45,963 nt of DNA from Candidatus Micrarchaeota archaeon (GTDB lineage Archaea; Micrarchaeota; Micrarchaeia; Anstonellales; Anstonellaceae). The position numbers were made by a program, and so were the translations under genes. The DNA lies in the NCBI GenBank assembly GCA_964458205.1, contig CAYWFJ010000001.1:1-45963 (forward strand), written 5' to 3'. Below the pieces are notes generated by a model. That model saw only the letters and a list, made by a program, of their open reading frames with translations, was not told the DNA's origin and ran no database searches. Below, one piece after another: positions 3,025 to 32,564 of the stretch (its first letter is position 1; every line of letters starts with the position of its first letter).

Positions 3025-3563
3025 CTTTTGCTTTTCCCTGCAAGCGCCTTCGCATAGTCCAGCATTTCCGGAACGGTTGCATAAAATGCAATTCGCCGTT
3101 CATCCATCCTCTTCAAAATCCAGCTCGCGGCCATGCACAGGGCGGAAGCGCACCAGGCTGCCAGGCTCAGCAGCGGGTTGGAATAGTCAACCACTGCGAT
3201 GATGGATTTGGCAGGCAGGGTAACGATGCCGGCCGCAGCTGACAATATGCTTAGGACCACGGACATATCGGACATTGCCTCCAGCTTTGAATGCTTCTCC
3301 CTCTCAATCCCAGCCTCAAGGCATACCTGGACCTGGTTTTCGCCAATGGCGGCCAGCAGCGCATCCGATTTCCCCCTCATGCGCGATTCTAGCCGGGAAA
3401 TTCTCTGCCTTATGCGCGCTTTGGCAAAGGCCGGAGGCTCCGCTCCCCCAAGCAAGCCTTCAAATCCCCTGATTTTCAAGTAGCCTTTATGGAACCGCCT
3501 GAGCATCGCGAATTCTTTTTTGTGCCGGCTTCCTTGCAGGCACTGCGCAGGCGCACATTCCAT
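3021..3563 (-). CDS. hypothetical membrane protein
   Basis: 180-aa ORF with two C-terminal hydrophobic helices. TATA-like TTTTATAAAT (complement of about 3583-3594) lies about 20 nt upstream of ATG 3563, consistent with a leaderless mRNA. No recognisable family. Confidence 0.45.
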   Translation of the reverse strand: MECAPAQCLQGSRHKKEFAMLRRFHKGYLKIRGFEGLLGGAEPPAFAKARIRQRISRLESRMRGKSDALLAAIGENQVQVCLEAGIEREKHSKLEAMSDMSVVLSILSAAAGIVTLPAKSIIAVVDYSNPLLSLAAWCASALCMAASWILKRMDERRIAFYATVPEMLDYAKALAGKSKS

Positions 3564-3745
3564 GCTTTTTTGCCAGTGTTTCTATTTATAAAATTATGTA
3601 TATTCTTTATGCCCGTAAACCGTGATTCGGGCAGTGCAAGATGGCGGCGCCTCCAATTGCCCCCTTCTGCATGCCTGGGCAAGCCTCCGGCTCAGCCTCG
3701 ATTTCTGCCTCAGGCAAATCACAGGGTGCTGCGCGATGCCGAATC

Positions 3746-4944: not shown

Positions 4945-5982
4945 CTACTTTTTCACGCAGCGCGGCGAACCGTACGAGACGTCACAGCGGAAGCCGGACG
5001 GGCAGTCGCTTTCCTGCCTGCAGGTTATCTTTATGCACTGGTACTGGCTTGCCGATAGCGGGTCTGTGTCGCAGCGCTCGTCATAGGCGCAATCGCTTGT
5101 CTTTGTGCACCTGCCAATGCGTGTCAGGCAGGTGTGGCTGTCTGAGTCGCATTTCTGCCATTCGCCGCACTCCGCGTCGCTTGAGCAGTAGCCTGTCCTG
5201 CTCTGGCAGCGCTTGATTGCCACATTGCACATCTGCCAGCTTCCGCAATCCCCATCGGACGCGCAAAGCCCGCGCTTTGCCTCGCACACGTGCGATTGGG
5301 CATTGCAAAGCTCCCATGTGGCGCAGTCGTTGTCATTCTCGCAGGAGCCGCTTCCTGCAACGCACCGTTTGGTTGCTGCATCGCAAACCTGCCATTCCTT
5401 GCAGTCCAAGTCGTTGTTGCAGAAGCCCGCCCTTGCCACGCATCTGTTGGTGGTGAGGTTGCATCTTTGCCACTGCTGGCACTCGACGTCTATGCTGCAC
5501 CTTCCTGTGAGCGAAACACATTTCCTCTTCACGGTATCGCAGGTCTGGTATGGCTCGCAGTCGAATTGGCTGTTGCAGTTCCCTGGCTTGGGGGCGCAGA
5601 CATGCCTATCCGGGTGGCATATCTCGCTTTCGGGATTGCACTGCGCGTCGCTGTCGCAAAAGCCAGCCTTCGGCCTGCAGCTGTTGCTTGCAGAATCGCA
5701 AAGCTGCCATCCTCCGCAGTCTGTGTCCAGCCTGCAGCGGTTTTTCTGGTAGGAGCAATAATGGGTGGCGTCGCACATCTTCATCGTGTCATTGCAGTCC
5801 GAGTCAAGGTTGCAGGCGCCGCTTTTCAGCGTGCATTTCTTGATTCCGGTTTCGCAATATTGCCATGCCTTGCATTGGCTGTCCTTCGTGCAGCTGGTGC
5901 TTCCGCTTCCGGCGCATCCTGACAGCGCCAGGAGCGCAACAATCCCGATCACAGCGAGCAGCAAACAAGTCTTCCGTGCCAA
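4945..5982 (-). CDS. secreted cysteine-rich repeat lipoprotein (12 x ~26-aa C-x5-C-x5-C-x6-C modules)
   Basis: 345-aa ORF with a TTG start. Signal peptide with lipobox-like LLALSGC, then 12 tandem modules (48 Cys) with recurring D-x-D-C and W-Q-x-C positions. Confidence 0.8.
   Translation of the reverse strand: MARKTCLLLAVIGIVALLALSGCAGSGSTSCTKDSQCKAWQYCETGIKKCTLKSGACNLDSDCNDTMKMCDATHYCSYQKNRCRLDTDCGGWQLCDSASNSCRPKAGFCDSDAQCNPESEICHPDRHVCAPKPGNCNSQFDCEPYQTCDTVKRKCVSLTGRCSIDVECQQWQRCNLTTNRCVARAGFCNNDLDCKEWQVCDAATKRCVAGSGSCENDNDCATWELCNAQSHVCEAKRGLCASDGDCGSWQMCNVAIKRCQSRTGYCSSDAECGEWQKCDSDSHTCLTRIGRCTKTSDCAYDERCDTDPLSASQYQCIKITCRQESDCPSGFRCDVSYGSPRCVKK
4948..5892 (-). repeat. in-frame tandem coding repeat, period about 78 bp, 12 units
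   Basis: Protein-level periodicity read from the ORF translation (CTKDSQCKAWQYCETGIKKC / CRLDTDCGGWQLCDSASNSC / CNNDLDCKEWQVCDAATKRC and so on). The units are diverged at DNA level. Confidence 0.8.
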
Positions 5983-12378: not shown

Positions 12379-12475
12379 AATGCAGCGCCACTATCGCATT
12401 ATCCGGCTCACACCAAACGCCCCCGCTTCAGCGGCACCTCGTGCCGGTTATGGGGGATTGGGGGCAAGAATAAAA

Positions 12476-12649
12476 TGCGACCGCCGGGATTTTCAGCCCC
12501 CATTTCTTTTGGGGTCGAAAGACCTTTTCTTCCGGGAAGAAAAGGGATTTCATTTGAACCCGGCTCGCGAGATTTAGGCGGCCAATTCCGCATAAATCGC
12601 CAATCAGCCTTGGCAATCTCGAATCCTAACCAGGCTAGACTACGGTCGC
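12476..12649 (-). tRNA. tRNA-Gly(GCC) with two introns (37 nt at 37/38, plus-strand 12574-12610; 63 nt in the T-loop, about 12489-12551)
   Basis: Hand-folded from the minus strand: GCGACCG TA GTCT AGCCTGGTTA GGAT T CGAGA TTGCCA[37 nt]A TCTCG CGAG CCGGG TTCAAAT[63 nt] CCCGG CGGTCGC A. All four stems pair, giving a 74-nt mature length. The T-loop junction is ambiguous by 1-4 nt because AAAT occurs on both sides. Confidence 0.8.
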
Positions 12650-13689
12650 AGCAAAGCCTCATTTGATGGGTTTTGTTTTAAAACGCTTGCGCTTGCCGCC
12701 ATGAAATAGGCGCAGGAGAAGGCGTCCCCAAGCCCCACGGTCCATTTGGGCGATTCGAGGAATCTTGCTTCATAGCCTTCAAGCTCAGGCAGCGTTGCGC
12801 ACCTGCCGTTTTCAGCCTTGAACGAGGCGCACTTTTCCGCGAACGCCATCGCCTCCTTGTCAAGTTTCCCCGCTGGCAGCACCTCCTGCCTTTCAGGCAT
12901 GTGGAACAGGACCGCATTCGCCTCCTGCGCCAGTTCCGATAAGTCGCAGCCGAACGAGGAAAGCTCGGTGTCATTCAGCCCGACCATGTCAACTGCAGGG
13001 AACAGCCTTTCCCGCACCGCATCCCGCACAGCCTCGGACTGGAATTCGCCAAGCTCCGCAAAAACGCAAAGGCCCGGGTTTATCTTTTTCCAGCGGAGGA
13101 TTTCATCAGTGAATTTGGCGAGCCTGTCCGGGGTTTTGAGGAGATGGAATCCGCCCACGAACGCCTTGCTGGCTGAGGGCAGGGCGGAATCGGCCGCCCT
13201 CTGGAAATCCTCCTCAAGATGCATGGGCAGCGGGTCATATGAGGCGATGAAGCGGGTGCGGCTTTCCTTGTGCTCGAACACGAAATGGTGCGCGCTTGGC
13301 GCCTGCGATGAAAACCCGCCAGCCGGAACAAAGCCGTCCTTTCCCGCAAGCAGTATTTTCTCCCTCTTCGAAAAGCGGGACAGGAGCTCGGAGTTGGCGA
13401 AATTGCTGTGGAGGAAGCATTCAACCCCAAGCGCGGACGCCTGCTCTGCCGCATTCCCTGCCTGCCCCCCGACAATCGAGCAATCGAACCTGATTTTGGA
13501 AAGGAGGGCGGCGCAGGTTTTCGCGTCGATGAGCGTTTCCTTCTGCCTGCCCTCGGCAAACGAGCCTGACATCTGCGAGGCGAGGGAAAACGATGCGGCG
13601 TCAATAAGCCCCATGTCCCCATCGCCTACGGCCTTGAGGTGGTCTATGTTCGCGTTGAAGGCGAAAACCGCGCGTTTCGGGAGTTCCAT
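12640..13689 (-). CDS. ADP-dependent sugar kinase family protein (glucokinase/phosphofructokinase-like), short 349-aa form
   Basis: AFNANIDHL, GGQAGNAAE, VGLNDTEL (NxxE) and C-terminal TVGLGDAFS motifs typical of the ADP-PFK/GK family. The last 10 nt overlap the tRNA-Gly(GCC) gene. Confidence 0.72.
   Translation of the reverse strand: MELPKRAVFAFNANIDHLKAVGDGDMGLIDAASFSLASQMSGSFAEGRQKETLIDAKTCAALLSKIRFDCSIVGGQAGNAAEQASALGVECFLHSNFANSELLSRFSKREKILLAGKDGFVPAGGFSSQAPSAHHFVFEHKESRTRFIASYDPLPMHLEEDFQRAADSALPSASKAFVGGFHLLKTPDRLAKFTDEILRWKKINPGLCVFAELGEFQSEAVRDAVRERLFPAVDMVGLNDTELSSFGCDLSELAQEANAVLFHMPERQEVLPAGKLDKEAMAFAEKCASFKAENGRCATLPELEGYEARFLESPKWTVGLGDAFSCAYFMAASASVLKQNPSNEALLRP
12676..12683 (-). 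promoter_or_regulatory. TATA-like TTTTAAAA about 27 nt upstream of the tRNA-Gly(GCC) 5' end, inside the 3' end of the kinase CDS
   Basis: Read directly. The spacing matches archaeal TATA-to-TSS distance. Confidence 0.4.
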
Positions 13690-13777: not shown

Positions 13778-13782
13778 ATTAT

Positions 13783-13855
13783 GCGGCTGTAGTCCAGCCT
13801 GGTAGGATCTGAGCTTCCCAAGCTCGAGACCCGGGTTCAAATCCCGGCAGCCGCA
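13783..13855 (+). tRNA. tRNA-Gly(CCC), intron-less
   Basis: GCGGCTG TA GTCC AGCCTGGTA GGAT C TGAGC TTCCCAA GCTCG AGAC CCGGG TTCAAAT CCCGG CAGCCGC A. Canonical cloverleaf, 73 nt, no encoded CCA. Confidence 0.92.
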
Positions 13856-13951
13856 TCCCATTCATAATCTGGGCATATGTCCGCCGCTGGCATCATCATT
13901 TCCCCCGAAGTTTCGCAACAGTTTATAATGTTCAGTCCTCAATCGTTAAGC

Positions 13952-32374: not shown

Positions 32375-32564
32375 GCGGATGTAGTATAACCTGGCTAGTA
32401 TTTTGGCCTTCCATAAAATCAAGCGGTCCTCCGCTTTATTTTGCAGGCAAGTCAAAGGTCCGGGTTCAAACCCTAGGGGGCATGCAGTCTTCAGATGATC
32501 CCCCTGATGGTTCACCCCCAATCAGCATTCATGGGTGAGCTTGGTGAAAATCCCGGCATCCGCA
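32375..32564 (+). tRNA. tRNA-Gly(UCC) with two introns (36 nt at 37/38, 32414-32449; 80 nt in the T-loop, about 32471-32550)
   Basis: Hand-folded: GCGGATG TA GTAT AACCTGGCTA GTAT T TTGGC CTTCCA[36 nt]A GTCAA AGGT CCGGG TTCAAA[80 nt]T CCCGG CATCCGC A. All stems pair, giving a 74-nt mature length. Confidence 0.8.

Follow-up and report, generated by a model that had tools for sequence, protein, structure and literature searches.

A tRNA-Gly(GCC) gene with a canonical and a T-loop intron in a Micrarchaeota archaeon

Results

Two introns interrupt a tRNA-Gly(GCC) gene

In the 45,963-nt stretch of DNA that we analysed (the window), the minus strand from 12649 to 12476 holds a 174-nt tRNA-Gly(GCC) gene with two introns, one of which falls inside the T-loop. 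Excision of 37 nt (12574-12610) and 63 nt (12490-12552) leaves a 74-nt tRNA-Gly(GCC), GCGACCGTAGTCTAGCCTGGTTAGGATTCGAGATTGCCAATCTCGCGAGCCGGGTTCAAATCCCGGCGGTCGCA, which ARAGORN calls as tRNA-Gly(gcc) with a full cloverleaf. We put at about 90% the probability that the locus is, as its sequence and conservation suggest, a functional gene of a Micrarchaeota archaeon with two bulge-helix-bulge (BHB) introns and its own promoter; among the relatives compared, exons and splice motif are under purifying selection. The first-pass annotation had delimited the locus exactly, and its proposal that a 74-nt cloverleaf emerges once 37 nt past position 37 and 63 nt of the T-loop are removed, with T-stem halves CCGGG/CCCGG and acceptor halves GCGACCG/CGGTCGC intact in the exons, is borne out. 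The parts of the locus and its flanking signals are as follows.

12676-12683, minus strand: archaeal TATA box TTTTAAAA, centred ~30 nt upstream of tRNA position 1
12611-12649, minus strand: exon 1, 39 nt, tRNA positions 1-37
12574-12610, minus strand: intron 1, 37 nt, canonical site 37/38
12553-12573, minus strand: exon 2, 21 nt, tRNA positions 38-59
12490-12552, minus strand: intron 2, 63 nt, T-loop site 59/60
12476-12489, minus strand: exon 3, 14 nt, comprising U60, T-stem 3′ half CCCGG, acceptor 3′ half CGGUCGC and discriminator A73
12466-12475, minus strand: T-rich tract TTTTATTCTT, directly after A73

Exon 1, which is the same or almost the same across 51 distinct relatives, supplies the 5′ half of the acceptor stem, the D-arm, the 5′ half of the anticodon stem and the anticodon loop as far as A37, including the anticodon GCC. 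Exon 2 runs from A38 through the 3′ half of the anticodon stem, the variable region CGAG and the T-stem 5′ half CCGGG to the T-loop residues UUCAAA. The encoded 3′ end of the gene lacks CCA. Within 174 nt the exons form one contiguous, collinear series, which rules out a split or permuted tRNA gene, and group I and group II introns are likewise ruled out, the inserts being 37 and 63 nt long and matched in Rfam at E ≤ 10 by chance similarities only. Open reading frames across the locus had been dismissed as artefacts in the first-pass annotation, and we agree: intron lengths in the orthologues differ by non-multiples of three, so that the 84-codon frame cannot be conserved.

The T-loop intron lies at 59/60 in a nearly strict BHB motif

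Five placements of the second intron, from 56/57 to 60/61, yield an identical product when the window sequence is considered by itself, and we assign the site to 59/60 from the BHB register together with the orthologous sequences. In archaeal pre-tRNAs the outer helix of the BHB is the stem of the interrupted arm, the central helix (H) is formed by the first four loop nucleotides and the four intron nucleotides that precede the last two, and each cut is made within a 3-nt bulge, past its second nucleotide. With this geometry, 59/60 in the T-arm is the counterpart of 37/38 in the anticodon arm, and it is the only site at which the cut follows the second bulge nucleotide. The T-stem CCGGG/CCCGG is then the outer helix, U54-U55-C56-A57 (12555-12558) pairs with intronic UGAA (12492-12495) in a perfect 4-bp H, and the two bulges, A58 A59|U (12552-12554) and A A|U60 (12489-12491), are 3 nt each. 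The relatives point to the same site. The first intron base varies among them (A, C, G or U), which excludes 60/61; where the intron of a relative ends in AC or AU, cutting at 58/59 would alter position 59; and 59/60 alone gives every relative the mature T-loop UUCAAAU.

When the T-arm and intron 2 were folded with ViennaRNA, both the minimum free energy (MFE) structure and the centroid were the hBHB fold (z = -2.43), with pair probabilities of 0.67-0.79 for H and unpaired probabilities of 0.72-1.0 for the bulge nucleotides. A BHB at the T-loop junction, which the first-pass annotation had asked for, can thus be drawn and is also the predicted MFE fold. On the intron side, the strict register offers h′ one G-C pair only. 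An alternative 4-bp inner helix, GAAA:UUUC, would produce a three-way junction and not a textbook BHB; it closes hairpin 1 (12523-12545, CCUUUUCUU-CCCGG-AAGAAAAGG, 9-bp stem), the strong internal hairpin noticed at the outset, and hairpin 2 (12498-12514) is located between this helix and H. No Rfam family matched intron 2. By this modelling the T-loop junction in the window is close to a strict hBHB.

The canonical intron carries the more relaxed motif

Intron 1 has a long inner helix, with 8 bp formed between GGCUGAUU (12602-12609) and AAUUGGCC (12580-12587), and its bulges are CA|A and AA|A. Its H, which would join U32-C35 (12613-12616) to GCCU (12576-12579), consists of two G-C pairs and two mismatches (U32.U and U33.C), compared with 3-4 pairs in most relatives. 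H was absent from the thermodynamic prediction for intron 1, only 2 of the 4 pairs being possible in the window; the fold as a whole has z = -2.56. Among 35 distinct junction sequences from 41 genes with a canonical intron, h′ covaries, with 6 of 10 pairs changing on both sides. The intron itself is 100% identical in loci L014 and L054. In the modelled structures the more relaxed motif of this gene is therefore that of canonical intron 1 and not that of the T-loop intron. The first-pass annotation had expected relaxed BHB recognition at the T-loop; a relaxed motif is indeed present, but in the canonical intron, and the T-loop junction, with its 4-bp H and two 3-nt bulges, is nearly strict.

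Standard tools overlook the unspliced gene

On the raw window the unspliced gene was missed by ARAGORN, with and without its intron options, and by Rfam at gathering and at permissive thresholds; the check with ARAGORN that had been recommended therefore fails on the locus as it stands and succeeds on the spliced 74-mer. With raw DNA both tools detect only an intron-less tRNA-Gly(CCC) of archaeal type at 13782-13858. A low-score ARAGORN call of tRNA-Gly(gcc) at 682-782 was discarded for its broken acceptor stem, as were the remaining low-threshold candidates, whose stems are also broken, and a weak Rfam match to CRISPR-DR54 (E = 2.6) was attributed to chance. An intact intron-less Gly(GCC) gene, the presence of which would have favoured a pseudogene, was found nowhere in the window.

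As a chance control we searched for split T-arms, took out the insert and submitted the result to ARAGORN with one further intron allowed. The real window gave 2 matches, as against 0 in 30 dinucleotide-preserving shuffles. Elsewhere the scan produced false positives at the intact tRNA-Pro and tRNA-Val genes of L008, along with doubtful 'Ser(aga)' calls. Several one-intron constructs were mislabelled Cys, Ala or Ser by ARAGORN, the intron boundary being ambiguous, and anticodons were read by hand.

A second two-intron glycine tRNA gene is present on the plus strand of the window.

32375-32564, plus strand: tRNA-Gly(UCC) gene; introns of 36 nt at 37/38 (32414-32449) and of 80 nt at 59/60 (32471-32550)

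ARAGORN identifies the 74-mer left after splicing as tRNA-Gly(tcc), and the gene, which is preceded by the TATA-like sequence GGTATATAAAA, went undetected by ARAGORN and Rfam on raw DNA. The window thus holds genes for all three glycine isoacceptors, with an identical T-arm, and 2 of the 3 carry two introns.

Related genes occur in all four intron states

The comparative set consisted of loci in metagenome-assembled genomes (MAGs) beside a PFK-like gene, which the tRNA-Gly(GCC) gene adjoins in several cases, and of 53 metagenome loci recovered by a scan for the exon 1 pattern. Parsing these loci yielded 51 distinct tRNA-Gly(GCC) genes, distributed over the possible intron states as follows.

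Both introns: 32 of 51 distinct genes
37/38 intron only: 9 of 51
T-loop intron only: 5 of 51
No intron: 5 of 51

The 37 distinct T-loop introns (that of the window gene and those of 36 other distinct relatives) are all at one site. They range from 18 to 131 nt and end in UGAA (in a few, UGAC, UGGA, UGAU or UGGC) followed by AA (in a few, AU or AC), after which comes U60. We aligned 31 distinct junction sequences, anchoring them on the splice sites only. The T-stem is invariant in this alignment and pairing in H reaches 95%; of the 31 sequences, 29 retain the first h′ pair (GC, CG, GU or AU) and 23 the second, and no shuffle attained the covariation score of the junction. Strict in-register h′ counts for the T-loop introns are low, and the MFE fold contains H in 13 of 37 orthologues, so that thermodynamic prediction alone would not settle the site. 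Since H is missing from the MFE fold of the other 24, the motif rests more on sequence conservation than on predicted stability.

The mature sequences fall into 23 distinct types, in which the cloverleaf is 99.6% paired and compensatory changes occur at 4:69, 5:68, 6:67 and 49:65. A C6.A67 mismatch in the acceptor stem (GCGACCG/CAGUCGC) recurs in one Gly(GCC) clade (L009, L026, L037, L042, L048, L059); with six distinct sequences carrying it, a sequencing error is unlikely. The mature tRNA of the window is identical to those of L001, L004, L014, L021, L029, L049 and L054, and the T-loop introns of the loci that share it measure 19-95 nt and are largely unrelated in sequence.

Glycine isoacceptor genes share T-loop intron families

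The T-loop intron of the window's Gly(UCC) gene (32471-32550) resembles introns in Gly(GCC) genes elsewhere, with identities of 97% over 30 nt and 85% over 48 nt; the loci in this cross-isoacceptor comparison were L041, L042, L001, L028, L050, L014, L066, L006 and L027. On the single contig of L027, the Gly(UCC) and Gly(GCC) T-loop introns are 90% identical over 52 nt. Gly(CCC), intron-less in the window, has 59/60 introns in L014, L066 and L006 that are related to Gly(GCC) families. Between the window and L014, exons and intron 1 are identical and the T-loop introns are unrelated. These sequence patterns suggest exchange or transfer of introns, or gene conversion, between isoacceptor genes.

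Nested in long T-loop introns is a double-hairpin module of ~50 nt, made up of a GC-rich stem with a UUCG loop and a CAAAAGC...GCUUUUG stem. It was located at the following positions, and also in L024, L045, L059 and L063.

L023, 4392-4446: double-hairpin module
L028, 5445-5499: double-hairpin module
L048, ~3553-3587: double-hairpin module

The copies in L023 and L028 are 90% identical, yet they lie at different positions in different intron families. We regard the module as a possible nested intron or small mobile insert. As a tentative proposal, we consider that modular T-loop introns may move, in Anstonellales-like Micrarchaeota, from one to another of the three tRNA-Gly isoacceptor genes, with their identical T-arm CCGGGUUCAAAUCCCGG as the landing or gene-conversion site, and that they may acquire ~50-nt double-hairpin modules along the way.

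The host is a Micrarchaeota archaeon

An ORF of the ADP-PFK/glucokinase family at 12640-13689, also on the minus strand, ends at the 5′ end of the tRNA. All 13 of the relatives of its product in a species-level genome collection come from Micrarchaeota MAGs; the best of them (58% identity) belongs to a Candidatus Anstonellaceae MAG, a family placed in the class Micrarchaeia, order Anstonellales. An exact look-up of the ORF returned no record. Several kb of the window align to Micrarchaeota MAG contigs at 65-77% DNA identity, and the metagenome contig L054, Ga0265297_10003416, matches the window at 94.7%. From these sequence relationships we assign the host to the Micrarchaeota, within the DPANN archaea.

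The ADP-PFK-like ORF has ~17 additional C-terminal codons relative to homologues that end near ...AYFMA, and these codons extend across the tRNA promoter and over the initial 10 nt of the tRNA itself. In L001, L002, L004 and L010 the orientation of the tRNA relative to the ADP-PFK-like gene is reversed. At 4945-5982 on the minus strand of the window, a 345-codon ORF would, from its translation as read, encode a highly repetitive cysteine-rich protein with repeats resembling C-x-x-D-x-D/E-C-x-x-W-Q-x-C.

Promoter-like and terminator-like signals and sequences 3′ of the gene

The TATA box is located within the 3′ end of the ADP-PFK-like ORF and is preceded by a BRE-like GCAAGCG (12684-12690). 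The sequence (A/C)CGTTTTAAAA is found at equal distance in many orthologous loci (L002, L004, L010, L014, L022, L028, L042, L048, L054 and others), and from the established geometry of archaeal promoters the TATA box would act as the promoter of the tRNA gene. T-runs follow the gene in most orthologous loci, and the T-rich tract of the window is likely to be an archaeal transcription terminator.

Fragments resembling tRNA 3′ ends were seen near several of the genes. Immediately 3′ of the tRNA, L054 has an extra 55 nt (window 12466-12476 compared with L054 ~2785-2840; also in L028), consisting of a U/A-rich hairpin and then a GC-rich hairpin and ending in a second copy of GUCGCA. Acceptor-like hairpins (GCGAC...GUCGCA) stand 3′ of the tRNA in L008 and L009, and partial copies of the tRNA 3′ end (GCGACCGCCGG, opposite strand) in L005, L007 and L010. 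Such copies and hairpins could be remnants of att sites or small tRNA-linked elements. Beside the PFK-like gene, L005 and L007 have just a 12-nt copy of the tRNA 3′ end (CCGGCGGTCGCA); the sequence that precedes it has no Rfam match. We considered a split tRNA half here and rejected it, as the BHB register does not fit.

Proposed splicing route and likely endonuclease

A plausible route to the mature tRNA begins with a precursor of ~180 nt, with its two BHB introns, which the gene's own TATA-box promoter would drive. At the T-arm, the T-stem would provide the outer helix and pairing of U54-A57 with the 3′-terminal UGAA the 4-bp central helix, placing the splice sites after the second nucleotide of the bulges A58 A59|U and A A|U60. 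By analogy with archaeal tRNA splicing in general, EndA would cut at four sites, an RtcB-type ligase would join the exons of 39, 21 and 14 nt into the 74-nt tRNA, and CCA addition would come after ligation.

The enzyme is most likely an EndA of the epsilon2 type known from Micrarchaeota, as the literature on the phylum leads us to expect. Of the tRNA genes of ARMAN-2 (Candidatus Micrarchaeum acidiphilum), 56% are disrupted (PMC3239211). In vitro, the three-unit epsilon2 EndA of this organism cuts strict as well as relaxed motifs (Fujishima et al. 2011, PMC3239211), among them a 59/60 intron (PMC3239211). The RNA-bound structure of the epsilon2 enzyme and its ARMAN-specific loop have been described (PMC12397907); as of 2018 the type was known only in ARMAN-1/2 and Mancarchaeum (PMC5829648). 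With the M. jannaschii sequence as query (in agreement with 1a79), neither the window nor 522 kb of related loci yielded an EndA. The ARMAN-2 epsilon2 enzyme (PDB 4FZ2/9W2K) has Y160 and K161 as ARMAN-specific loop residues. A protein search with its sequence, mostly rebuilt from a PDB alignment, returned at least 120 full-length homologues of ~385-390 aa that cover all three units, and many of those listed belong to MAGs designated Micrarchaeota, Micrarchaeia or Micrarchaeaceae. No homologue was tied to the lineage of the window: four contig look-ups and one cluster look-up led only to other MAG series (JBMF...) or to proteins labelled Marsarchaeota. Several Micrarchaeia MAGs (L067-L071) show a conserved gene order of RadA, TP_methylase (diphthine-synthase-like) and epsilon2-type EndA.

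Discussion

Alternative readings of the locus

That the locus is merely intergenic sequence with tRNA-like pieces brought together by chance has a single point in its favour, the failure of automatic finders on raw DNA, and the comparative data refute it: 50 other distinct sequences preserve the gene, its cloverleaf covaries, and the shuffled windows returned no match where the real one gave two. We regard this reading as having a negligible probability. A tRNA pseudogene, in which a Gly(GCC) gene was inactivated by the 63-nt T-loop insertion while a working copy persists elsewhere in the genome, is very improbable as well. It would account for the silence of the standard tRNA finders, some related populations do possess an intron-less Gly(GCC) (L012, L019, L020, L030, L055, L056), and our search for such a copy covered the window and the fetched flanks of the relatives. 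Yet the related contigs that carry the interrupted gene have no second, intron-less Gly(GCC) in those flanks, and the intact exons match exactly those of relatives that share only ~65-77% identity in the flanking DNA. The 37 distinct genes with an insertion at the same site have kept the UGAA-AA|U motif and a perfect cloverleaf with compensatory changes, and promoter and terminator signals are preserved. Intact exons, a conserved insertion, a TATA box and a T-run together argue for a functional gene.

A different question is whether the T-loop insert has a life of its own, either as a mobile family spreading between tRNA-Gly genes or, once excised, as a stable and perhaps circular RNA that serves some role of its own. 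The T-loop intron families common to Gly(GCC), Gly(UCC) and Gly(CCC) across genomes, the 90% identity over 52 nt in L027, the unrelated T-loop introns that accompany the same exons and intron 1 in the window and L014, the appearance of the double-hairpin module at differing places in long introns, and the predicted folding of intron 2 into two stable hairpins would all suit such an element. The sharing could nonetheless have arisen by simple gene conversion, the genes having an identical T-arm, and the wide variation in intron length (18-131 nt) and sequence opposes a conserved RNA product. Intron 2 belongs to no family matched in Rfam, and no C/D-box motifs were seen on reading its sequence. 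We think it somewhat unlikely that the insert is a mobile or functional RNA module, and we retain the reading of the locus as a functional tRNA gene with two BHB introns.

Relation to known tRNA introns

Archaeal tRNA genes with several introns, one of them a non-canonical BHB intron at 59/60, are a class already published and biochemically tested in this phylum, and the present gene belongs to it. In ARMAN-2, 59/60 introns occur in tRNA-Cys(GCA), as a 13-nt hBH, and in tRNA-Pro(GGG), which is interrupted at 53/54 and 59/60 (Fujishima et al. 2011, PMC3239211). The present gene shares with these a host in the class Micrarchaeia, the 59/60 site, the T-stem as outer helix and more than one intron per gene, and a broad-specificity epsilon2 EndA would be expected here by analogy. 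It differs in the order of its host, whose nearest named relative belongs to the Anstonellaceae (Anstonellales), in being a tRNA-Gly, in combining 37/38 with 59/60, and in having a structured intron that is far longer (63 nt here, and up to 131 nt in relatives). Whereas the ARMAN-2 tRNA-Cys intron forms a bulge-helix-loop, both bulges are formed in the fold predicted here.

The first-pass annotation had looked to Thermoproteales and a few other lineages for precedents of non-canonical introns. The likeness to the multi-intron tRNA genes of Thermoproteales and other TACK archaea, which also have non-canonical BHB introns, including T-loop introns, is real, and a multi-intron gene is what we find, but the host is a DPANN micrarchaeon and not a Thermoproteales-type crenarchaeon. 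In the TACK group there are up to three introns per tRNA gene, and the occurrence of related introns in different tRNA genes suggests spread, giving rise to an intron transposition model (Sugahara et al.; Fujishima et al. 2010, as cited in PMC3239211 and PMC4090602). Those hosts have an (alpha-beta)2 EndA with a Crenarchaea-specific loop, and intron sharing here is, at the loci examined, confined to three tRNA-Gly isoacceptor genes with an identical T-arm. Intron 1 is like the canonical 37/38 hBHBh′ intron in its position, its long covarying h′ and its two 3-nt bulges, and is unlike it in that H is cut to two G-C pairs in the window, most relatives retaining 3-4.

No new mechanism is revealed by the locus. 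What is new is modest: the Anstonellales-like order, the combination of tRNA and introns, the longer and structured T-loop introns, and a comparative series that spans four intron states. We found no paper on tRNA introns in Anstonellales; descriptions in print concern ARMAN-1/2 and Mancarchaeum, and the present gene adds a well-supported 59/60 tRNA intron outside the order of the first DPANN description.

Implications

Routine annotation overlooks 2 of the 3 glycine tRNA genes of the window. Genes missed in this way bear on the tRNA counts by which the completeness of MAGs is judged, and published tables of Micrarchaeota MAGs give tRNAscan counts (PMC8561730, PMC12892359). The 51 tRNA-Gly(GCC) genes, with all four intron states represented, constitute a natural series on the gain, loss and swapping of BHB introns, and the same series bears on the minimal recognition motif of the Micrarchaeota endonuclease. 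If modular T-loop introns do move among the glycine isoacceptor genes, these archaea would possess an active system of intron gain, loss and swap within DPANN, comparable to the intron transposition of Thermoproteales.
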